This document shows positions 2,976 through 13,145 of a DNA stretch of 64,000 nucleotides, one piece after another. The notes beneath the pieces were generated by a model. It searched no databases. It saw only the letters and a program-made list of their open reading frames with translations, and was not told the origin of the DNA. Position 1 is the stretch's first letter. Each line of letters opens with the position of its first letter. The position numbers and the translations under genes are program-made. The DNA is from a phage, in sequence record PZ583743.1; one strand, written 5' to 3'.

Positions 2976-5900
2976 ATGGCCGAGATTAAAAGAAAGTTCA
3001 GAGCAGAAGATGGTCTGGACGCAGGTGGCGATAAAATAATCAATGTAGCTTTAGCTGATCGTACCGTAGGAACTGACGGTGTTAACGTTGATTACTTAAT
3101 TCAAGAAAACACAGTTCAACAATATGATCCAACTCGTGGATATTTAAAAGATTTTGTAATCATTTATAATAATCGTTTTTGGGCAGCAACGGATAATATT
3201 CCAAAACCTGCTGGAAGTTTTAATAGAATTCGTTGGAAAGCATTACGTACTGATGCCGTATATACAACCGTATCATCTGGACCATATCAATTAAAATCCG
3301 GAGAAGCAATTTCAGTAGATACATCAGTTGGTAATGACATTGAGTTTAATTTACCACCTTCTCCGCTTGATGGAGAAACCGTAATAATTCAAGATATTGG
3401 TGGAAAACCTGGTATAAATCAGGTTAAAATAAATTCTTCAAATCAGAGTATTGTTAATTTTAGAGGTGAACAAGTACGTTCAGTTCTAATGACTCATCCA
3501 AAGTCACAGATGATATTCATTTTTAATAATCGTTTGTGGCAAATGTATGTTGCTGATTATAGCAGAGAAGCTGCGATTGTTACTCCATCGACTGCATATC
3601 AAGCACAATCTAATGATTTTATCGTGCGTAGATTTACTTCCGCTGCGCCGATTAATATTAAACTTCCGAGATTTGCTAATCATGGCGATATTATTAATTT
3701 CGTTGATTTAGATAAATTAAATCCACTTTATCATACAATTGTCACGACATATGATGAAACAACTTCAGTACAAGAAGTTGGAACTCATTCTATTGAAGGC
3801 CGTACATCGATTGACGGTTTCTTGATGTTTGACGATAATGAAAAATTATGGAGATTGTTTGACGGGGATAGTAAAGCACGTTTACGCATTATAACAACTA
3901 ATTCTAATATTCGTCCAAATGAAGAAGTTATGGTATTTGGTGCGAATAACGGAACAGCCCAAACAATTGAACTTCAGCTTCCAACCGATATTTCCATTGG
4001 TGATACTGTTAAAATTTCCATGAATTACATGAGAAAAGGACAAACAGTTAAAATCAAAGCTGCCGGTGAAGATAAAATTGCTTCTTCAGTTCAATTGCTG
4101 CAATTCCCAAAACGCTCAGAATATCCACCTGAAGCTGAATGGGTGACTGTCCAAGAATTAGTTTTCAATGGTGAAACTAATTATGTTCCGGTTTTACAAC
4201 TTGCTTATATAGAAGATTCTGACGGAAAATACTGGGTTGTACAACAAAACGTTCCAACGGTTGAAAGAGTCGATTCTTTAAATAATTCTACTAGAGCAAG
4301 ATTAGGCGTAATTGCTTTAGCTACACAAGCTCAAGCTAACGTCGATTTAGAAAATTCTCCGCAAAAAGAATTAGCAATTACACCAGAAACATTAGCTAAC
4401 CGTACTGCTACAGAAACTCGTAGAGGTATCGCAAGAATAGCAACTACTGCTCAAGTAAATCAGAACACTACATTCTCTTTTGCAGATGACCTTATCATCA
4501 CTCCTAAAAAGCTGAATGAAAGAACTGCTACAGAAACTCGTAGAGGTGTTGCTGAAATTGCTACACAGCAAGAAACTAACGCAGGTACTGATGATACTAC
4601 AATCATCACTCCTAAAAAGCTTCAAGCTCGTCAAGGTTCTGAATCATTATCTGGTATTGTAACCTTTGTATCTACCGCAGGAGCTACTCCAGCTTCTAGT
4701 CGTGAATTAAATGGTACGAATGTTTATAATAAAAACACTAATAATTTAGTTGTTTCGCCTAAAGCTTTGGATCAGTATAAAGCTACTCCAACCCAACAAG
4801 GCGCAGTAATTTTAGCAGTTGAAAGTGAAGTAATTGCTGGACAAAGCCAAGAAGGATGGGCAAATGCGGTTGTAACGCCAGAAACGTTACATAAAAAGAC
4901 ATCAACTGATGCAAGAATTGGTTTAATTGAAATTGCTACACAAAGTGAAGTTAATACAGGAACTGACTATACTCGTGCAGTCACTCCTAAAACTTTAAAT
5001 GACCGTAGAGCAACTGAAAGTTTAAGTGGTATAGCTGAAATTGCTACACAAGTTGAATTCGACGCAGGCGTCGACGATACTCGTATCTCTACACCATTAA
5101 AAATTAAAACCAGATTTAATAGTACTGATCGTACTTCTGTTGTTGCTCTATCTGGATTAGTTGAATCAGGAACTCTCTGGGACCATTATACCCTTAATAT
5201 TCTTGAAGCAAATGAGACACAGCGTGGTACACTTCGTGTAGCTACACAAGTTGAAGCTGCTGCAGGAACATTGGATAATGTTCTAATAACTCCTAAAAAG
5301 CTTTTAGGTACTAAATCTACTGAAGCACAGGAAGGCGTTATTAAAGTTGCAACTCGGTCTGAAACTGTAGCTGGAACGTCAGCAAATACTGCTGTATCTC
5401 CAAAAAATTTAAAATGGATTGTGCAGAGTGAACCAACTTGGGCAGCAACTACTCTGATAAGAGGGTTTGTTAAAACTTCATCTGGTTCAATTACATTCGT
5501 TGGTAATGATACCGTTGGTTCAACGCAGTCATTAGAATCATATGAGAAAAATGGTTATGCAGTATCACCATATGAATTAAATCGCGTATTAGCAAATTAT
5601 TTGCCATTAAAAGCAAAAGCCGTAGATAGTAATTTATTAGATGGTCTAGATTCGCTCCAGTTCATTCGTAGGGACATTGCACAAACAGTTAATGGTTCAC
5701 TAACCTTAACGCAACAAACGAATCTGAGTGCCCCTCTTGTATCATCTAGTACTGCTACGTTTGGTGGATCAGTTTCGGCAAATAGTACATTAACTATTTC
5801 TAATACTGGAACGGCAACTCGTCTGATTTTTGAAAAAGGACCTCAAACTGGGACGAACCCAGCTCAAACGATGACAGTCAGAGTGTGGGGAAATCAATTC

Positions 5901-6845
5901 AGCGGTGAATCGGACACAACACGTTCTACCGTATTTGAAGTTAGTGATGAAACGTCTAATCACTTTTATTCTCAGCGCAATAAAGCTGGTAATATAACAT
6001 TTAATATAAACGGTACAGTAACGCCGATAAATGTGAATGCTTCAGGAACATTGAATGCGAATGGCGTTGCAACATTTGGTAATTCAGTCACTGCTAATGG
6101 CGAATTTATCAGTAAATCATCGAATGCTTTTAGAGCAATAAACGGTGATTATGGATTCTTTATTCGTAATGATGGTGCTAACACCTATTTTATGCTTACT
6201 GCATCTGGTGATCAGACCGGTGGATTTAATGGATTACGTCCTTTAACTATTAATAATGCATCTGGTCAAGTAACGATTGGTGAAAGCTTAATCATTGCCA
6301 AAGGTGCTACTATAAGTTCAGGTGGTTTAACTGTTAACTCGAGAATTCGTTCTCAGGGTACTAAAACCTCTGATTTATATACCCGTGCGCCAACATCTGA
6401 TACTGTAGGATTCTGGTCAATCGATATTAATGATTCAGCCACTTATAACCAGTTCCCGGGTTATTTTAAAATGGTTGAAAAAACTAATGAAGTTACTGGA
6501 CTTCCATACTTAGAACGTGGTGAAGAAGTTAAATCTCCTGGTACATTGACTCAGTTTGGTAACACACTTGATTCACTTTACCAAGATTGGATTACTTATC
6601 CAACGACCCCAGAAGCACGTACCACTCGCTGGACACGTACATGGCAGAAAACCAAAAACTCTTGGTCAAGTTTTGTTCAGGTATTTGACGGAGGTAACCC
6701 TCCTCAACCTTCAGATATAGGAGCGATCCCATCTGATAATGGAATAATAGGTAATCTTACTATTCGTGATTTCTTGCGAATTGGTAATGTTCGCATTATT
6801 CCTGACCCAGTGAATAAAACTGTTAAATTTGAGTGGATTGAATAA
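2976..6845 (+). CDS. 34: gp34 long tail fibre proximal subunit
   Basis: 1289 aa, identical length to T4 gp34; N-terminus MAEIKRKFRAEDGLDAGGDKIINVALADR; internal repeats of the (I/V)ATQxE...G(T/S)D type. Confidence 0.95.
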   Translation: MAEIKRKFRAEDGLDAGGDKIINVALADRTVGTDGVNVDYLIQENTVQQYDPTRGYLKDFVIIYNNRFWAATDNIPKPAGSFNRIRWKALRTDAVYTTVSSGPYQLKSGEAISVDTSVGNDIEFNLPPSPLDGETVIIQDIGGKPGINQVKINSSNQSIVNFRGEQVRSVLMTHPKSQMIFIFNNRLWQMYVADYSREAAIVTPSTAYQAQSNDFIVRRFTSAAPINIKLPRFANHGDIINFVDLDKLNPLYHTIVTTYDETTSVQEVGTHSIEGRTSIDGFLMFDDNEKLWRLFDGDSKARLRIITTNSNIRPNEEVMVFGANNGTAQTIELQLPTDISIGDTVKISMNYMRKGQTVKIKAAGEDKIASSVQLLQFPKRSEYPPEAEWVTVQELVFNGETNYVPVLQLAYIEDSDGKYWVVQQNVPTVERVDSLNNSTRARLGVIALATQAQANVDLENSPQKELAITPETLANRTATETRRGIARIATTAQVNQNTTFSFADDLIITPKKLNERTATETRRGVAEIATQQETNAGTDDTTIITPKKLQARQGSESLSGIVTFVSTAGATPASSRELNGTNVYNKNTNNLVVSPKALDQYKATPTQQGAVILAVESEVIAGQSQEGWANAVVTPETLHKKTSTDARIGLIEIATQSEVNTGTDYTRAVTPKTLNDRRATESLSGIAEIATQVEFDAGVDDTRISTPLKIKTRFNSTDRTSVVALSGLVESGTLWDHYTLNILEANETQRGTLRVATQVEAAAGTLDNVLITPKKLLGTKSTEAQEGVIKVATRSETVAGTSANTAVSPKNLKWIVQSEPTWAATTLIRGFVKTSSGSITFVGNDTVGSTQSLESYEKNGYAVSPYELNRVLANYLPLKAKAVDSNLLDGLDSLQFIRRDIAQTVNGSLTLTQQTNLSAPLVSSSTATFGGSVSANSTLTISNTGTATRLIFEKGPQTGTNPAQTMTVRVWGNQFSGESDTTRSTVFEVSDETSNHFYSQRNKAGNITFNINGTVTPINVNASGTLNANGVATFGNSVTANGEFISKSSNAFRAINGDYGFFIRNDGANTYFMLTASGDQTGGFNGLRPLTINNASGQVTIGESLIIAKGATISSGGLTVNSRIRSQGTKTSDLYTRAPTSDTVGFWSIDINDSATYNQFPGYFKMVEKTNEVTGLPYLERGEEVKSPGTLTQFGNTLDSLYQDWITYPTTPEARTTRWTRTWQKTKNSWSSFVQVFDGGNPPQPSDIGAIPSDNGIIGNLTIRDFLRIGNVRIIPDPVNKTVKFEWIE

Positions 6846-6853
6846 GAGGTATT

Positions 6854-7969
6854 ATGGAAAAATTTATGGCAGAGTTTGGACAAGGATACGTCCAAACGCC
6901 ATTTTTATCGGAAAGTAATTCAGTAAGATATAAAATAAGTATAGCGGGTTCTTGCCCGCTTTCTACAGCAGGACCGTATGTTAAATTTCAGGATAATCCT
7001 GTCGGAAATCAAACATTTAGCGCAGGTCTTCATTTAAGAGTTTTTGACCCTTCAACAGGAGCATTAGTTGATAGTAAGTCATATGCTTTTTCTACTTCAA
7101 ATAATACTACATCAGCTGCTTTTGTTAGTTTCATGAATTCTTTGTCAAACAATAGACTTGTTGCTATATTAACTAGCGGAAAGGTTAATTTTCCTCCTGA
7201 AGTGGTATCTTGGTTAAGGGGAGCAGGAACTTCAGTTTTTCCATCAGATTCAGTATTGTCAAGATTTGACGTATCATATGCTGCTTTTTATACTTCTTCT
7301 AAAAGAGCTATTGCATTAGAGCATGTTAAACTAAGTAATAGAAAAAGCACAGATGATTATCAAACTATTTTAGATGTTGTATTTGATAGTTTAGAAGACG
7401 TCGGAGCTACGGGATTTCCTAAAAGAACATATGAAAGTGTCGAGCAATTTATGTCAGCGGTTGGTGGAACTAATAACGAAATTGCGCGATTGCCAACTTC
7501 AGCTGCTATAAGTAAACTATCTGATTATAATTTAATTCCTGGTGATGTTCTTTATCTTAAAGCACAGTTATATGCTGATGCTGATTTACTTGATCTTGGA
7601 ACTACAAACATATCCATTCGTTTTTATGATGCATCAAATGGATATATTTCCTCTACCCAAGCTGAGTTTACTGGGCAAGCTGGGTCTTGGGAATTAAAGG
7701 AAGATTATGTAGTTGTTCCTGAAAATGCAGTCGGATTTACTATATATGCGCAGAGAACTGCTCAAGCTGGTCAAGGCGGCATGAGGAATTTAAGCTTTTC
7801 TGAAGTATCAAGAAATGGCGGCATTTCAAAACCTGCCGAATTTGGCGTCAACGGTATTCGCGTTAATTATGTCTGTGAATCGGCTTCACCTCCAGATATA
7901 ATGGTACTTCCTACACAAGCCTCTTCTAAAACTGGCAAAGTGTTTGGGCAAGAATTTAGAGAAGTTTAA
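6854..7969 (+). CDS. 35: gp35 long tail fibre hinge protein
   Basis: 371 aa; position between 34 and 36. Confidence 0.9.
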   Translation: MEKFMAEFGQGYVQTPFLSESNSVRYKISIAGSCPLSTAGPYVKFQDNPVGNQTFSAGLHLRVFDPSTGALVDSKSYAFSTSNNTTSAAFVSFMNSLSNNRLVAILTSGKVNFPPEVVSWLRGAGTSVFPSDSVLSRFDVSYAAFYTSSKRAIALEHVKLSNRKSTDDYQTILDVVFDSLEDVGATGFPKRTYESVEQFMSAVGGTNNEIARLPTSAAISKLSDYNLIPGDVLYLKAQLYADADLLDLGTTNISIRFYDASNGYISSTQAEFTGQAGSWELKEDYVVVPENAVGFTIYAQRTAQAGQGGMRNLSFSEVSRNGGISKPAEFGVNGIRVNYVCESASPPDIMVLPTQASSKTGKVFGQEFREV

Positions 7970-7974
7970 ACTGA

Positions 7975-8000
7975 GGGAGCCTTCGGGTTCCCTTTTTCTT
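7975..8000 (+). terminator. Rho-independent terminator after gene 35 (GGGAGCC-UUCG-GGUUCCC + U-run)
   Basis: Stem-loop followed by TTTTTCTT read directly. Confidence 0.65.
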
Positions 8001-8008
8001 TATAAATA
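8001..8008 (+). promoter_or_regulatory. Late promoter TATAAATA for gene 36
   Basis: Exact TATAAATA ~24 nt upstream of gene 36 ATG. Confidence 0.7.
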
Positions 8009-8031
8009 ATATTAAAATAAAGGGGCATATA

Positions 8032-8682
8032 ATGGCTGATTTAAAAGTAGGTTCAACTGTGGGTGGATCTGTCATTTGGCATCAAGGAAATTTTCCATTG
8101 AATTCAGCCGGTGACGATGTACTCTACAAATCATTTAAAATATATTCAGAATATAATAAACCGCAGGCAGCTGATAACGATTTCGTTTCTAAAGCTAATG
8201 GTGGTACTTACACCGGTCCAATTACTATTAATTACGGGGTAAATAGTTATCTTCAATTAAGTAATAATGAAACCCCAATTCGAATTCGTTCTGGCGGCGG
8301 TACCGGTAATACTCTTGTAGTTGGCGGCTCTTCCGGTGGTATTAGTTTTAGACCTGCAGGTAGTGAAATCACTACTGGGCAAATTACTATTACGCCAGAA
8401 GGTTTGACAACATTTACTAGGGCTGTAACGGCTCCATCGGTAACTGTTACATCTACTCCTTCCGCAGCATCTGATGTTACTCGTAAAGATTATGTCGATG
8501 GAGCAATAAATACTGTTACGGCAAATGCAAACTCTAGGGTATTACGCTCTGGAGATACTATGACAGGAAATTTAACTGCGCCAAACCTTTTTTCACAGAA
8601 TCCTGCATCTCAACCCTCACATGTTCCACGATTTGACCAAATCGTGATTAAGGATTCTGTTCAAGATTTCGGCTATTATTAA
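8032..8682 (+). CDS. 36: gp36 long tail fibre distal connector subunit
   Basis: 216 aa; synteny. Confidence 0.9.
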   Translation: MADLKVGSTVGGSVIWHQGNFPLNSAGDDVLYKSFKIYSEYNKPQAADNDFVSKANGGTYTGPITINYGVNSYLQLSNNETPIRIRSGGGTGNTLVVGGSSGGISFRPAGSEITTGQITITPEGLTTFTRAVTAPSVTVTSTPSAASDVTRKDYVDGAINTVTANANSRVLRSGDTMTGNLTAPNLFSQNPASQPSHVPRFDQIVIKDSVQDFGYY

Positions 8683-8690
8683 GAGGACTT

Positions 8691-11639
8691 ATGGCTACTT
8701 TAAAACAAATACAATTTAAAAGAAGCAAAACTGCAGGTCAACTTCCTGCCGCTTCAGTATTAGCCGAAGGTGAATTGGCTATTAATTTAAAAGATAAAAC
8801 AATTTTCACAAAAGATGACTCAGGCAATGTTATAGAATTAGGTTTAAAATATGGAGGAACAATTGATGGTTCTTTAACTGTTAATGGAAATATAATTGGA
8901 AATTTAACAGGTAACGCTGCAACTGCAACGAAATTAAAAACAGCACGAAAAATTAATGGTATATCCTTTGATGGGTCAAAAGATATCACGCTAACTCCAT
9001 CTGACATAAATGTCAATAGCACAACATTTATAAAAAATAATGGCGAATTACCTGTTGATGCTAATTTAGATGAGTATGGGCCTGTTGAAGAATATCTTGG
9101 AGTTTGGTCGAAAGCAACTTCAACCAACGCTCAACCAGCAAATAAATTTCCAGAACAAAATGCTGTAGGTGTGCTAGAAGTATTTGTGGCCGGTCAATTT
9201 GCTGGTACTCAGAGATATACAACTAGATACGGAAATGTTTATATTCGTTCCTTGACTGCTACATGGAACGGAGTAAATGGTCCGTGGAGTGTGTGGCGAA
9301 ATATTCAATCCGGTACTCGTCCACTGTCAACAACAATTGATCTTAATGATCTAGGAGGCGCTGAACACTTTGGTTTGTGGCGAAATAGTTCAAATTCCAT
9401 TGCTACCTTTGACAGAAATTTCCCAGAAGAAGGATCGTCAGCTCAAGGACTTTTAGAAGTATATGAAGGTGGAAACTATTCTCGCACACAGAGATATACG
9501 ACCAGATTTGGTGTTGTTTATACTCGCTGTCTTACTGCTGCGTGGGATGCTTCTGCGCCTAAATGGGGACCGTGGCAACAAGTCGGTAATGTCACACCGG
9601 CGACTTTCTATGACGGAAACCTGAATGATTTTAAAACTCCTGGGTTATATAATATTTTAGGCACTGATGCCGTTATTAATTGTCCTACAGGCGAAGGTTT
9701 ACCAGCCGTTATTGTTGGTTTGCTGGAAGTTAAACAACGTGCTTCTGGCGGTGCTATTTTCCAAAAATTTACTACTGCCGGAACGGGTGAAACTACTCGC
9801 GATCGTATTTTTGAGCGCGCATATACCGGCGGTGCGTGGGGTGCATGGAACGAAGTATATACATCTTATTCTCTGCCAATTACTTTGGGTATGGGTGGTA
9901 TTAAAGCTCAATTAGCGGAGTTAGATTGGCAAACCTTTGATTTTGTCCCTGGTAGTATGTTTAGCGTTCCTTTGAACAAAATAAAGAACATGCCAGCTAA
10001 TATGGATTGGGGTACGATTGACGGAAACTTAATTATGTTTTCTGTTGGTCCTAGCGAGCACACCAGCACAGGACGTACTGTTCAGGTTTGGCGTGGTACT
10101 GTATCCCAGACAAACTACCGTTATTTTGTCGTTCGTGTATTCGGTAATTCAGGAAATAGAACTTGCACAGTTCGTCGCGTTGTTCTTGAAGATGGTCGCC
10201 ATTCTTGGACGGCACAACAAGATTTTAGGGGCGCGGTTAATCTTTACGGTGCTACATATCTTCGTTCAAACAATAAATTAACATTAGATCCGAGTGCATA
10301 TATTCAAGCACCAGCAAGCGGTTCTGGTTCTAATACTTACGCAAATCAGAATACTACTATTGCGCCATTATATCAGGCCATTGACGATTCAAATAAAAAC
10401 CAGTTTGCTCCTATTGTAAAACAGAAAAACACTGTAACAAATATTACTATGGCTTCTGGTATGGATATTGCTAGTTCAGAATATCGTATCATTGCTCAAG
10501 GTGATTTATCCGCTACTGGAACTACAGCTAATGAATTAGCTACATGGCGTTTCTTGCCGTCTGGCCGATTCATGTCACAAAGCCGAGTTTATGCTGGCGC
10601 AGCATTCCTTAATACCGATGGTAATATTGCTGGTTCAATCTGGAAGAAATATAACAATGCGACAAATTTAGATGCTGCCTTGAATACTCGCGTAGGTAAA
10701 GGCGGTGATACGATGACAGGTCGGTTAACAATCAATGCACCTAATGATTCTATCGTATTATCAACAACTGCTAGTAATTCTTTGCATATTCGCGGTGACA
10801 TAGACGGGACTGGTAACTGGTATATTGGCAAGGGTGGTGCTGATAATTCGCTAGCATTTTATAGCTATGCTACTCAGGCGGCAGTACATATCACAAACAA
10901 TGGTGAGATTTCGCTAAATCCACAAAATATCGCAATGGTTAACGTTAACCGCGATCGTGTACACATTAACGGTTCTGGATGGATTGCTAGACAACCGGGT
11001 GATTGGGGCAACCAATGGCGAGTAGAAGCTCCATTATTCGTTGATCATGGTTATGTTTCACAGGATTGTTATTATCCTATTCTTAAAGCAAGAAGCGTTA
11101 TAACCAATCAAGGATATAGCACCGCTGTTGACTTTGGTATGCGTCGTATTCCATCACAGTGGGGGCAAGCAATCATTCGTGTCGGATCCACGGAGGCTTC
11201 TCCTGATGCTGGACACCCACAAGCTGTGTTTGAATTCCATCATGATGGATTCTTTTATACACCAGGAAATGGTAGCTTTAGCGATGTGTATATTCGTTCT
11301 GACTCCCGTCTCAAGATTAATAAAGAAGAATTAGAATATGGAGCGGTCGAAAAAGTTTGCCGACTGAAAGTTTATATTTACGATAAAGTTAAGTCTATTA
11401 AAGACCGTAGTGTTATTAAACGTGAAGTTGGTATTATTGCTCAGGACCTTGAAAAGGAATTACCGGAAGCTGTATCTAAAGTTGAAGTTGATGGATCTGA
11501 TGTTCTGACAATTTCTAACTCTGCTGTGAATGCTCTTTTAATTAAGGCTATTCAGGAAATGAGTGAAGAAATTAAAGAATTGAAAACGCCTCTCTTTACT
11601 AAAATTGTTCGCAAAATTAGTAAATATTTTAAATTCTAA
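8691..11639 (+). CDS. 37: gp37 long tail fibre distal subunit, T2-type with C-terminal self-cleaving chaperone-like module
   Basis: 982 aa; N-terminus MATLKQIQFKRSKTAGQLPAASVLAEGELA; C-terminal ~113 aa begins SDSRLKINKEELEYG, resembling an S74-type intramolecular chaperone cleavage motif. Confidence 0.9.
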   Translation: MATLKQIQFKRSKTAGQLPAASVLAEGELAINLKDKTIFTKDDSGNVIELGLKYGGTIDGSLTVNGNIIGNLTGNAATATKLKTARKINGISFDGSKDITLTPSDINVNSTTFIKNNGELPVDANLDEYGPVEEYLGVWSKATSTNAQPANKFPEQNAVGVLEVFVAGQFAGTQRYTTRYGNVYIRSLTATWNGVNGPWSVWRNIQSGTRPLSTTIDLNDLGGAEHFGLWRNSSNSIATFDRNFPEEGSSAQGLLEVYEGGNYSRTQRYTTRFGVVYTRCLTAAWDASAPKWGPWQQVGNVTPATFYDGNLNDFKTPGLYNILGTDAVINCPTGEGLPAVIVGLLEVKQRASGGAIFQKFTTAGTGETTRDRIFERAYTGGAWGAWNEVYTSYSLPITLGMGGIKAQLAELDWQTFDFVPGSMFSVPLNKIKNMPANMDWGTIDGNLIMFSVGPSEHTSTGRTVQVWRGTVSQTNYRYFVVRVFGNSGNRTCTVRRVVLEDGRHSWTAQQDFRGAVNLYGATYLRSNNKLTLDPSAYIQAPASGSGSNTYANQNTTIAPLYQAIDDSNKNQFAPIVKQKNTVTNITMASGMDIASSEYRIIAQGDLSATGTTANELATWRFLPSGRFMSQSRVYAGAAFLNTDGNIAGSIWKKYNNATNLDAALNTRVGKGGDTMTGRLTINAPNDSIVLSTTASNSLHIRGDIDGTGNWYIGKGGADNSLAFYSYATQAAVHITNNGEISLNPQNIAMVNVNRDRVHINGSGWIARQPGDWGNQWRVEAPLFVDHGYVSQDCYYPILKARSVITNQGYSTAVDFGMRRIPSQWGQAIIRVGSTEASPDAGHPQAVFEFHHDGFFYTPGNGSFSDVYIRSDSRLKINKEELEYGAVEKVCRLKVYIYDKVKSIKDRSVIKREVGIIAQDLEKELPEAVSKVEVDGSDVLTISNSAVNALLIKAIQEMSEEIKELKTPLFTKIVRKISKYFKF

Positions 11640-11644
11640 CAACA

Positions 11645-11663
11645 AGGGGGAAATGCCCCCTTT
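11645..11663 (+). terminator. Hairpin (GGGGG-aaaug-CCCCC + UUU) after gene 37; weak terminator or RNA structure
   Basis: Read directly; short U-run. Confidence 0.4.
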
Positions 11664-11675
11664 GGAGTATAAATT

Positions 11676-12458
11676 ATGGCAGTAGTTAGTGTTCCTGGTT
11701 GGATTGGAAGTTCAGCCGCAAATGAAACAGGGCAACGATGGATGAGTCAAGCGGCTGGTCAACTAAGATTGGGTGTTCCTTGCTGGATGAGTCAATTTTC
11801 AGGTCGCTCGCGAGAAATTATTCATACACTTGGTGCAGACCATAACTTCAATGGTCAGTGGTTCCGTGATAGATGCTTTGAGGCAGGTAGTACACCTATA
11901 GTGTTTAATATTACAGGTGATTTAGTATCATATTCTAAAGATGTTCCTTTATTCTTTATGTACGGAGATACACCGAATGAATATGTTCAGTTGAATATAC
12001 ATGGCGTAACGATGTATGGTCGTGGCGGGAATGGCGGTAGCAATAGTCCTGGATCAGCTGGGGGTCATTGTATTCAAAATGATATTGGTGGGAGACTAAG
12101 AATTAATAATGGCGGAGCTATTGCTGGCGGTGGCGGTGGCGGTGGCGGCGGATATTATTCTCCTTTTTCACAAATGAGATTGACCTTTGGCGGTGGCGGC
12201 GGTCGTCCGTTTGGCGCTCCGGGCGGATCTATTGATATGCAATCAGGAGCAACTGCTGGTACTATTTCTGCACCAGGCTCAGGGTCTGTGAACGGTATCT
12301 ATAGCGGCGGGTCTGGTGGTGAAGTTGGATCCGCAGGGGGTAGATGTAATATTCGTGGTCAAGGATATGAATACGATGGCGGAGCTGCTGGTTATGCCGT
12401 CATAGGGTCTACGCCGACATGGCAAAACGTTGGAGCAATATATGGTCCAAGAGTATAA
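11676..12458 (+). CDS. 38: gp38 receptor-recognising adhesin (T2-type, glycine-rich)
   Basis: 260 aa (T4 gp38 chaperone is 183 aa; T2-type adhesin ~260 aa); poly-Gly stretches [11 protein letters not shown] and GGGGG. Confidence 0.85.
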
Positions 12459-12488
12459 TTTGAATAAATATCCTTAAAAGGAGGGTCT

Positions 12489-13145
12489 ATGGCAGCACCT
12501 AGAATATCATTTTCGCCCTCTGATATTCTGTTGGGTGTTCTAGATCGCTTGTTCAAAGATAACGCTACCGGGAATGTTCTTGCTTCCCGGGTAGCTGTCG
12601 TAATTCTTTTATTTATGATGGCGATTGTTTGGTATAGGGGAGATAGTTTCTTTGAGTACTATAAGCAATCAAAGTATGAAACATACAGTGAAATTATTGA
12701 AAAGGAAAGAAATGCACGCTTTGAATCTGTCGCCCTGGAACAACTCCAGATAGTTCATATATCATCTGAGGCAGACTTTAGTGCGGTGTATTCTTTCCGC
12801 CCTAAAAACTTAAACTATTTTGTTGATATTATAGCATATGAAGGAAAATTACCTTCAACAATAAGTGAAAAATCACTTGGAGGATATCCTGTTGATAAAA
12901 CTATGGATGAATATACAGTTCATTTAAATGGACGTCATTATTATTCCAATTCAAAATTTGCTTTTTTACCAACTAAAAAGCCTACTCCCGAAATAAACTA
13001 CATGTACAGTTGTCCATATTTTAATTTGGATAATATCTATGCTGGAACAATAACCATGTACTGGTATAGAAATGATCATATAAGTAATGACCGCCTTGAA
13101 TCAATATGTGCTCAGGCGGCCAGAATATTAGGAAGGGCTAAATAA
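12489..13145 (+). CDS. t: Holin T
   Basis: 218 aa as in T4; one TM segment VAVVILLFMMAIVWY; strong SD AAGGAGGG. Confidence 0.9.
   Translation: MAAPRISFSPSDILLGVLDRLFKDNATGNVLASRVAVVILLFMMAIVWYRGDSFFEYYKQSKYETYSEIIEKERNARFESVALEQLQIVHISSEADFSAVYSFRPKNLNYFVDIIAYEGKLPSTISEKSLGGYPVDKTMDEYTVHLNGRHYYSNSKFAFLPTKKPTPEINYMYSCPYFNLDNIYAGTITMYWYRNDHISNDRLESICAQAARILGRAK

Follow-up and report, generated by a model that had tools for sequence, protein, structure and literature searches.

Does the long glycine tract of the tail-fibre adhesin gp38 serve as a mutational switch by which a phage varies its host range, or is its repetitive DNA a consequence of a protein fold in which glycine is needed nine times in a row? 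The question is of general interest, as it is gp38 that mainly determines the host range of most T-even phages, and therapeutic phages are engineered with this protein as a target. The window analyzed here is the whole stretch of 64,000 nucleotides from the phage sequence record PZ583743.1. For its gene 38 (g38), the original prediction claimed a glycine-rich product of 260 aa that acts as a tip adhesin of the T2/T6 type rather than as a chaperone of the T4 type, as well as a near-perfect GGY repeat that could drive length variation close to the loops that set host range.

Identity of gp38 and organization of the fibre locus

Gene 38 is part of a fibre locus with the order g34-g35-g36-g37-g38-t, and family matches in Pfam were obtained for each gene tested (Table 1). 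The product of g34 comprises 1289 aa, and the position of the t holin gene directly downstream of g38 fixes the T-even synteny. In the distal half-fibre subunit gp37, autocleavage is predicted between R869 and S870 (DVYIR/S; nucleotides 11297 and 11298), which would release a C-terminal intramolecular chaperone of 113 aa. The identical site, DVYIR/SD, together with a chaperone of 113 residues, is known from the Yersinia fPS phages and from S16 (PMC7917993).

The spacer between g37 and g38 contains a GC-rich hairpin (-14.7 kcal/mol for the fold of 11636-11680, z = -2.46), which the scan for terminator-like structures called on the minus strand only. Between this hairpin and the gene, 2 nt before the ATG start codon of g38, lies the putative late-promoter-like box TATAAATT; it resembles TATAAATA, the consensus of the T4 late-promoter box. 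The repeat search found GAGTATAA(A/T)TT upstream of g38 and of t alike. Sites resembling sigma-70 promoters are fewer around g38 than in shuffled sequence, and the tRNA scan found no tRNA genes in the window.

Table 1. Features of the fibre locus around g38 (positions refer to the window; all features are on the plus strand as given).
Feature	Position	Strand	Evidence
g37, distal half-fibre subunit, 982 aa, bears gp38	8691..11639	+	Pfam Peptidase_S74, aa 870-928, 5.5e-10
GC-rich hairpin in the g37-g38 spacer, core GGGGG-AAAUG-CCCCC	11643..11666	+	RNA fold of 11636-11680
TATAAATT, putative late-promoter-like box	11667..11674	+	Sequence likeness to TATAAATA
g38 CDS, T6/T2-type receptor-recognizing adhesin, 260 aa	11676..12458 (stop codon included)	+	ORF, Pfam, PDB, DNA identity
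N-terminal domain for attachment to gp37, aa 1-41; contains Trp9, Trp22, Trp37	11676..11798	+	Pfam Gp38_N
12-nt perfect direct repeat TGGATGAGTCAA (codes WMSQ), copy 1	11739..11750	+	Repeat search, spacing 45 nt
12-nt perfect direct repeat TGGATGAGTCAA, copy 2	11784..11795	+	Repeat search
GRM1, GRGGNGG, aa 115-121	12018..12038	+	G115, R116, G117, G118, G120 invariant
Perfect hexanucleotide tandem repeat (TGGCGG)x4.0	12125..12148	+	Tandem Repeats Finder, 100% matches, score 48
Gly9 tract, aa 151-159, GRM2 of the five-motif scheme	12126..12152	+	ORF translation, alignment
15-nt perfect direct repeat TGGCGGTGGCGGCGG, copy 1, 3' end of the Gly9 tract	12137..12151	+	Repeat search
HVS2, aa 160-171, distal receptor-binding loop, predicted beta-hairpin	12153..12188	+	DSSP of model, alignment
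15-nt perfect direct repeat TGGCGGTGGCGGCGG, copy 2, Gly5 motif 51 nt downstream	12188..12202	+	Repeat search
GRM3, GGGGGRPFG, aa 172-180	12189..12215	+	G173-G176, P178, G180 invariant
t holin gene, directly 3' of g38	12489..13145	+	Pfam Phage_holin_T, 1.1e-116

As predicted, the open reading frame of g38 encodes a glycine-rich protein of 260 aa, in which 61 of the residues (23.5%) are glycine; the GC content of the gene is 47% versus 35% for the window. Residues 1-41 match the Pfam family Gp38_N (PF21721; E = 2.2e-19, 69.6 bits) and residues 47-260 the family GP38 (PF05268; E = 1.3e-71, 241.4 bits), the cut-off being 25 in both cases, and hmmscan found no other family on the protein at E ≤ 0.01. 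Searches with phmmer against PDB returned the receptor-binding domain of PP01 gp38 (9V85; 6.4e-80) and gp38 of S16 (6F45 chain D; 2e-49). The same two structures are found with an AlphaFold2 model that was built with 49 relatives in the alignment (mean pLDDT 86.8): Foldseek aligns the model with 9v85_C (E = 3.3e-26, TM 0.88, rmsd 2.2 A) and with 6f45_D (E = 1.6e-22), while no other PDB fold falls below E = 1 and the next match lies above E = 4. The predicted model also combines a beta-helix with a polyglycine type II (PGII) sandwich, as is characteristic of this fold.

These results bear directly on the alternative that the window gp38 is a fibre-assembly chaperone of the T4 type which stays outside the virion, an idea to which we give practically no credence. 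Its sole support is the gene position after g37, and this position is common to both types. Against it stand the hmmscan result, which is confined to the two adhesin families, the solved relatives of PP01 and S16, which are tip adhesins, and the intramolecular chaperone domain that gp37 has of its own; the matches from Pfam, PDB and Foldseek rule out the T4-type identity. The gp38 of T4 has 183 aa, and this contrast in length is consistent with the absence of other Pfam family matches. The assignment to the tip adhesins of the T2/T6 type is thus borne out by both Pfam families, by the PDB matches to PP01 and S16 and by the position between g37 and t, and an alignment with the T4 chaperone family, which had been named as the result that would speak against it, is not seen in Pfam at E ≤ 0.01. 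The protein is already known, with a near-identical copy in published phages; it is a Tequatrovirus adhesin of the T6/RB3 subtype.

Both partners show the features expected for docking, i.e. W9, W22 and W37 in gp38 and a removable C-terminal chaperone in gp37, whose cleavage is predicted. W9 and W22 are invariant among the 49 relatives, and the role of the three tryptophan prongs has been described for S16 gp38 (PMC6851490). Furthermore, the scheme of five glycine-rich motifs (GRM) and four hypervariable segments (HVS) that is known from gp38 adhesins (PMC3157838) fits the window protein: invariant glycine blocks are found at residues 115-120, 152-156, 173-176, 212-215 and 236-239, and the stretches separating these five blocks are variable in the alignment. 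That glycine-rich blocks flank the host-range loops, as had also been claimed, is established knowledge (PMC3157838, PMC6851490).

Closest phages and probable receptor

The g38 DNA matches 353 phage records and is 99.9% identical to that of the Shigella phages SF2-1 and CT01. For the locus from g36 to t, the best record, Escherichia phage Paracelsus, reaches only 96.1%, so that, judged by these matches, the fibre locus as a whole is mosaic in a slightly different way. At the protein level, gp38 is 96.9% identical to that of RB3/RB5, 94.6% to that of the BASEL phage WilhelmHis and about 92% to that of T6. Its length equals theirs save for one residue in T6, motif order and the Gly9 tract are shared, and HVS1 and HVS2 are identical to those of RB3/RB5. 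The differences come down to few substitutions; among others, the window protein has S202, S213 and Y231, where most relatives have A, G or N, and S, respectively.

The T6-like adhesins of RB3, RB5, RB6, RB7, RB14 and RB27 use Tsx (PMC3157838), and for WilhelmHis the dependence on Tsx was confirmed by complementation (PMC8594841). Because the window gp38 is 92-97% identical to the adhesins of Tsx-dependent phages, its receptor is most probably this nucleoside channel. Two observations count against the assignment: the nearest isolates, SF2-1 and CT01, were grown on Shigella flexneri, and small changes in the HVS can shift the receptor (PMC3157838). For the window, the result is only an annotation, namely that of a T6-type adhesin for which binding to Tsx is probable on the basis of sequence.

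Structural role of the Gly9 tract

In the phmmer alignment, G151-G158 of the window protein pair with G151-G158 of S16 gp38. The S16 structure assigns this segment, 151-GGGGGGGG-158, to helix 3, the long central helix in a lattice in which ten polyglycine type II helices are stacked in three layers; it forms the central GRM, with a saturating network of hydrogen bonds (PMC6851490). Only glycine fits at helix 3, because its backbone is fully hydrogen-bonded to the adjacent helices (PMC6851490). The fold is shared by the gp38 proteins of PP01 and S16 (PMC12892980). In our AlphaFold2 model, residues 151-160 have a mean pLDDT of 96, and DSSP calls neither helix nor strand in the tract block, as PGII would give. 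Five of the glycines, G152-G156, do not vary among the 49 diverse relatives, and G157 is kept in at least 90%. Alignment and model together place Gly151-158 of the window protein as PGII helix 3, in the center of the polyglycine sandwich. The Gly9 tract is a structural helix and not a flexible spacer.

The ninth glycine has a different position in the model. DSSP predicts the strands 159-164 and 167-172 around HVS2 (pLDDT 81); because this hairpin begins at residue 159, Gly159 is, in the model, the start of the HVS2 hairpin. In PP01, the corresponding residue is Tyr159, at which an adaptive change has been described (PMC6027323). The HVS2 segment itself is variable in the alignment of the relatives. 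In the naming with five motifs, the tract is GRM2, as can be deduced from the limits of the HVS in PMC12032242 together with residues 167/168, which PMC3157838 assigns to HVS2.

DNA sequence and repeat purity of the tract

The tract is encoded by GGC GGT GGC GGT GGC GGT GGC GGC GGA, so that eight GGY codons are followed by a final GGA. The near-perfect GGY repeat that had been described is real, although its end was placed at 12151, one base short of the true end at 12152. Since a period of 3 is imposed by the glycine codons, we confined the test of repeat purity to the third bases of the tract. When nine glycine codons are drawn at random, a perfect period of 6 extends over 23 nt or more in 0.6% of the draws with the codon usage of gp38, in 1.7% with that of gp34-37 and in 4% with that of the tract itself; the hexamer purity of the window tract is mildly unusual. 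This purity is not conserved. At the nine-codon length, no fewer than six further third-base patterns occur among relatives, and the nine-codon alleles comprise seven or more different strings of synonymous codons; of the nine-Gly alleles seen, that of the window has the purest hexamer array. Furthermore, GGC is enriched in the glycine tracts (8/14 codons versus 33/242 in gp34-37, p = 3e-4). The start of the tract, GCTGGCGG, is one mismatch away from the Chi sequence of E. coli; the idea of a Chi site was dropped, as such a site would probably have little importance in a T-even phage.

Length of the tract among relatives

The survey of tract length is based on 211 gp38 proteins, i.e. cluster representatives and sampled members. 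In the clades with nine glycines, 138 of 144 distinct proteins possess nine, six possess fewer and none possesses more; the shorter tracts have seven glycines in P0140, P0153, P0155 and P0208, six in P0051 and four in P0112. An additional contraction, from seven to four glycines (P0120), belongs to another clade. The differences between clades (nine Gly; eight Gly followed by Ile; Ser and six Gly followed by Ala) are substitutions at the ends and not indels, and in one distant relative, whose tract is pure (GGC)7GGT, the eight glycines typical of its own clade are retained. The 60 cultured phages listed out of 171 matching records all have the nine-codon length, and none of these 60 carries the 7-Gly allele; for this check, a 141-nt probe from a 7-Gly allele was used, with 147 aligned nucleotides corresponding to nine codons. 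A flank-anchored pattern with a variable gap detected nine codons in all of its matches (four metagenome and three viral contigs), a scan of low sensitivity in which the flanks had to match exactly and which yielded these seven matches only.

Constant length combined with synonymous turnover indicates that the length of the glycine tract is under purifying selection. A repeat number that differs among close relatives, as is typical of contingency loci, was not found in cultured phages, contigs or proteins apart from the rare contractions. Experimental results for relatives point in the same direction. In T6, the deletion of GRM2 gave no viable phage, and crosses for GRM/HVS deletions produced no deletion mutant of any kind in 220 progeny screened (PMC3157838). 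The host-range and escape mutations reported in three studies are loop substitutions: Y159H, Q161H/R, N163H, T207I and W189R in PP01, D190G in T2, and changes at residues 167, 168 and 208 in PST (PMC6027323, PMC12529663, PMC3157838).

In-frame contractions to 7, 6 or 4 glycines were observed in at least 4-5 lineages, and no expansions were observed. The contracted tracts are all pure (GGTGGC)n arrays, and the commonest loss is that of one hexamer unit, a pattern expected from replication slippage. P0155, a 7-Gly allele, was recovered from two unrelated runs (DRR827113 and SRR27902277), and a second 7-Gly version, in SRR23203958, shares only 89% DNA identity with it; an unrelated, Krischvirus-like 7-Gly allele is contained in an NCBI assembly. 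Since three or more independent runs thus contain a 7-Gly allele, of which two versions share only 89% DNA identity, at least some shorter tracts seem to persist, and the length constraint does not seem to be absolute. All contraction alleles originate from run or metagenome assemblies, none from a cultured phage. One of them, P0153, is also without 15 N-terminal residues, exactly the codons between the 12-nt repeats TGGATGAGTCAA; as a docking tryptophan is lost in this way, the P0153 adhesin may be defective. In principle, defective gp38 alleles could persist by complementation. The RefSeq gp38 of phage HP3 is frameshifted within the tract, and that of HP3.1 is intact; more likely, this frameshift reflects a tract that is error-prone for sequencing.

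Duplication and loss of HVS2 between adjacent glycine motifs

The 15-nt repeat shared by the Gly9 tract and the Gly5 motif brackets HVS2. Two phages of Yersinia pseudotuberculosis, ZN18 and PYps47T, have duplicated this segment independently via exchange between Gly9 and Gly5. The tract codons of ZN18 equal those of the window; its tandem duplication comprises 51 nt (17 aa), with the junction in the 15-nt repeat. In PYps47T, the duplication comprises 54 nt (18 aa) in a different register, and the insertion is given as 15 residues in PMC8762354. The duplicated g38 alleles span 834 and 837 nt, versus 783 nt. When the phage collection was searched with the ZN18 junction, a single-piece match was found in ZN18 only; the count from this search is unreliable, as non-duplicated phages also reach 100% coverage when overlapping pieces are joined. 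The reciprocal deletion of HVS2 is present in P0020 and P0024 and is probable for P0027 and P0034; in GRM1 of PYps55T, a GGQ unit is duplicated in tandem.

PYps47T is viable and lyses 52 of 128 Y. pseudotuberculosis strains, versus 78-87 for its siblings without the insertion (PMC8762354). GRMs have been proposed as recombination hotspots, with crossovers at these sites leading to chimeric adhesins (PMC3157838; PMC12032242, citing Tetart 1998). The duplications and deletions fit this older proposal, which does not imply that the DNA repeat is selected for shuffling.

Alternative interpretations

The GGY tract could be a slippage-prone locus whose frequent length changes reposition the adjoining loop and thereby diversify host range, as in a bacterial contingency locus. 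This would agree with the perfect (TGGCGG)x4 array, whose purity has a P of about 0.006-0.04 under random codon choice, with the series of contractions (from nine to seven glycines in P0155, P0153, P0140 and P0208, to six in P0051 and to four in P0112; from seven to four in P0120), each of which leaves a pure (GGTGGC)n array, and with the location of the ninth glycine at position 159, where PP01 gains the adaptive Y159H (PMC6027323). We nevertheless regard such a function as very unlikely. Four hexamer units are short for a tract with a high rate of slippage. Length is constant in 60/60 cultured phages among the matches listed, in 7/7 contigs and in 138/144 proteins, with synonymous turnover at unchanged length and without a single expansion; the contractions all stem from run or metagenome assemblies, and P0153 may be defective. 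Moreover, the T6 deletion of GRM2 was not viable (PMC3157838), and the mutants in PMC6027323, PMC12529663 and PMC3157838 carry point substitutions in the HVS loops. As for the original suggestion that the repeat drives length variation, rare contractions and unequal recombination between the tract and the Gly5 motif lend it weak support, and an invariant length, which had been named as the observation that would speak against it, is close to what the above counts show.

A different role would be that of microhomology 'linkers': the GGY DNA of the glycine motifs would allow homologous or unequal recombination to swap, duplicate and delete whole HVS cassettes, and it would possibly be selected as a means of modular shuffling beside its structural role. 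We consider this conceivable but doubtful. The 15-nt direct repeat (12137-12151 and 12188-12202), the 51-nt duplication of ZN18 that is joined exactly in this repeat, the independent 54-nt duplication of PYps47T, the reciprocal HVS2 deletions (P0020, P0024, probably P0027 and P0034) and the GGQ duplication in GRM1 of PYps55T are all in accordance with it, as are the hotspot proposal and the chimeric adhesins (PMC3157838; PMC12032242, citing Tetart 1998), and the local GC content, which is raised by the enrichment of GGC/GGT. However, the glycine codons are imposed by the fold, so that the repeats need no separate selection at the DNA level, and third bases vary among relatives, which argues against selection for DNA identity. 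The duplication of PYps47T goes with a narrower Yersinia host range (PMC8762354), and no viable T6 was obtained when HVS2 was deleted (PMC3157838). One could go further and propose that the GGY DNA of adjacent glycine motifs is a recurrent adaptive route to changes in HVS2 copy number; the window allele, which combines the two copies of the 15-nt repeat with the purest hexamer tract seen, would then be poised for rearrangements that shift host range and for losses of 6 nt by which the loop changes its register. We think it improbable that this extended proposal is right.

Proposed explanation

We are quite confident of a model in which the window encodes a gp38 adhesin of the T6/RB3 type, Gly151-158 form PGII helix 3, the length of the tract is held by selection, and the rearrangements are by-products. 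Following the homologs, gp37 would form a trimer whose 113-aa C-terminal chaperone cuts itself off between R869 and S870, and a single gp38 monomer would cap the fibre tip via its N-terminal domain with Trp9/22/37. A short beta-helix would bear the PGII 'sandwich' made of glycine-rich motifs, and the loops HVS1-4 would project from this sandwich and bind an outer-membrane protein, most probably Tsx. The GGY repeat of the DNA would be a consequence of coding glycine nine times, with selection keeping nine glycines and synonymous bases drifting. Because the DNA is repetitive, it would misalign at times, leading to rare contractions of 6, 9 or 15 nt, and unequal exchange between the Gly9 tract and the Gly5 motif 51 nt away would duplicate or delete HVS2. 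According to this model, contractions and HVS2 rearrangements are mutational by-products and not a programmed variation device, and the tract is not a mutational switch. The recurrence of 7-Gly alleles, the hexamer purity of the window tract and the enrichment of GGC speak against this model. Variation in tract length is rare and downward only.

The DNA of the glycine motifs is, at the same time, repetitive enough for occasional contractions, for duplications and deletions of a loop, and for one frameshifted database record. Hence, the tract needs checking when such g38 genes are engineered or assembled.

Comparison with known systems

The closest structural counterparts are gp38 of S16 (6F45) and of PP01 (9V85), which share with the window protein the three-domain architecture, the PGII sandwich and the long glycine tract at 151-158 (PMC6851490, PMC12892980). 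Identity in the Foldseek alignment is about 43% for S16 and about 65% for PP01. In these two phages, of Salmonella and of E. coli O157, respectively, eight glycines are followed by F or Y, whereas the window protein has a ninth glycine; their loops also differ from those of the window, and they bind OmpC, not Tsx. The gp38 of T4 shares the gene slot after g37, but its sequence is unrelated and without a family match, and it is not a component of the virion (PMC6851490).

With the simple-sequence contingency loci of bacteria and phages, the window tract has in common a short tandem repeat in a gene for surface recognition and an occasional change in unit number. Unlike such loci, it is short, imperfect at period 3 and nearly invariant in length, changes in frame only and codes for a buried helix. 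A parallel to the rearrangements is gp37 of T4, in which duplications of a small adhesin domain expand host range, as reported in PMC3157838 for Tetart et al. 1996. In that protein as well as in gp38 of ZN18 and PYps47T, short conserved motifs that flank a specificity segment mediate tandem duplication; the T4 case differs in that another protein and another type of motif are concerned, and the host range reported with a gp38 duplication, that of PYps47T, is narrower (PMC8762354).

Duplication at the glycine-tract repeats of gp38

In two phages of Y. pseudotuberculosis, vB_YepM_ZN18 and PYps47T, the hypervariable loop HVS2 has been tandemly duplicated together with a glycine motif. These events occurred independently (17 aa and 18 aa, respectively), and both have their junctions within GGY repeats common to the Gly9 and Gly5 tracts. 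The insertion of PYps47T was published as 15 residues, without recognition as a duplication (PMC8762354).

Other indels are found among the Yersinia phages. The gp38 of PYps55T carries a tandem duplication of GGQ in its first glycine-rich motif (GRM1) and an additional Ser directly behind its Gly8 tract; that of PYps35T lacks QYGN, four residues of a distal loop. Both phages are viable, with broad host ranges among Yersinia.

The glycine codons of the Gly9 and Gly5 tracts (12126-12203) are GGC in 8 of 14 cases, versus 33 of 242 in gp34-37 (2976-11639; Fisher p = 3e-4), and GGG almost never occurs in the glycine tracts of any relative. Avoidance of G homopolymers is one possible explanation for this strong bias.

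The RefSeq gp38 of Escherichia phage HP3 (P0128) has a frameshift within the glycine tract and ends after 187 aa; in HP3.1, the re-sequenced HP3 (P0129), the protein has its full 260 aa. Judging from these protein records, an error in sequencing through the GC-rich repeat probably produced the frameshift.

Coordinates of the features discussed
Feature	Location	Remarks
Repeat pair, Gly9/Gly5 tracts	12137-12151 / 12188-12202	window
Duplication locus	L002 1951-2079	Yersinia phage vB_YepM_ZN18
g38	L022 301-1137	Yersinia phage PYps47T
g38	L024 6168-6977	PYps55T
g38	L023 5997-6782	PYps35T
Perfect 12-nt direct repeat TGGATGAGTCAA	11739-11750 and 11784-11795	gp38 docking domain
g38 apart from g37	L014 1501-2277; L015 318-1079; L017 322-1092	Krischvirus-like contigs
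GC-rich hairpin and promoter-like box	11643-11675	36-nt g37-g38 spacer
g37	8691-11639	982 aa; C-terminal Peptidase_S74 chaperone
Predicted gp37 cleavage motif DVYIR869|S870	11283-11297	

Docking-domain repeat

Both copies of TGGATGAGTCAA encode WMSQ, at aa 22-25 and aa 37-40 of gp38. In P0153, a variant known from an assembly, precisely the 15 codons lying between them are missing, a deletion that would take away one of the three docking tryptophans.

Surroundings of g38

The predicted RNA fold of the g37-g38 spacer is a hairpin of -14.7 kcal/mol (z = -2.46), with GAGTATAAATT lying 3' of it, directly ahead of the g38 start. Ahead of t there is a near-copy, GAGTATAATTT (12451-12461), which extends over the 3' end of g38. 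The two are putative promoter-like elements, similar in sequence to the late-promoter box of T4. In some relatives, the Krischvirus-like contigs, g38 does not adjoin g37, and the genes around it are small and of unknown function.

The length of gp37 differs widely among relatives in the assemblies (e.g. 477 aa in L016). In the window, a cut at the DVYIR869|S870 motif is predicted to release a chaperone of 113 aa, a length equal to that of the gp37 chaperone of S16.
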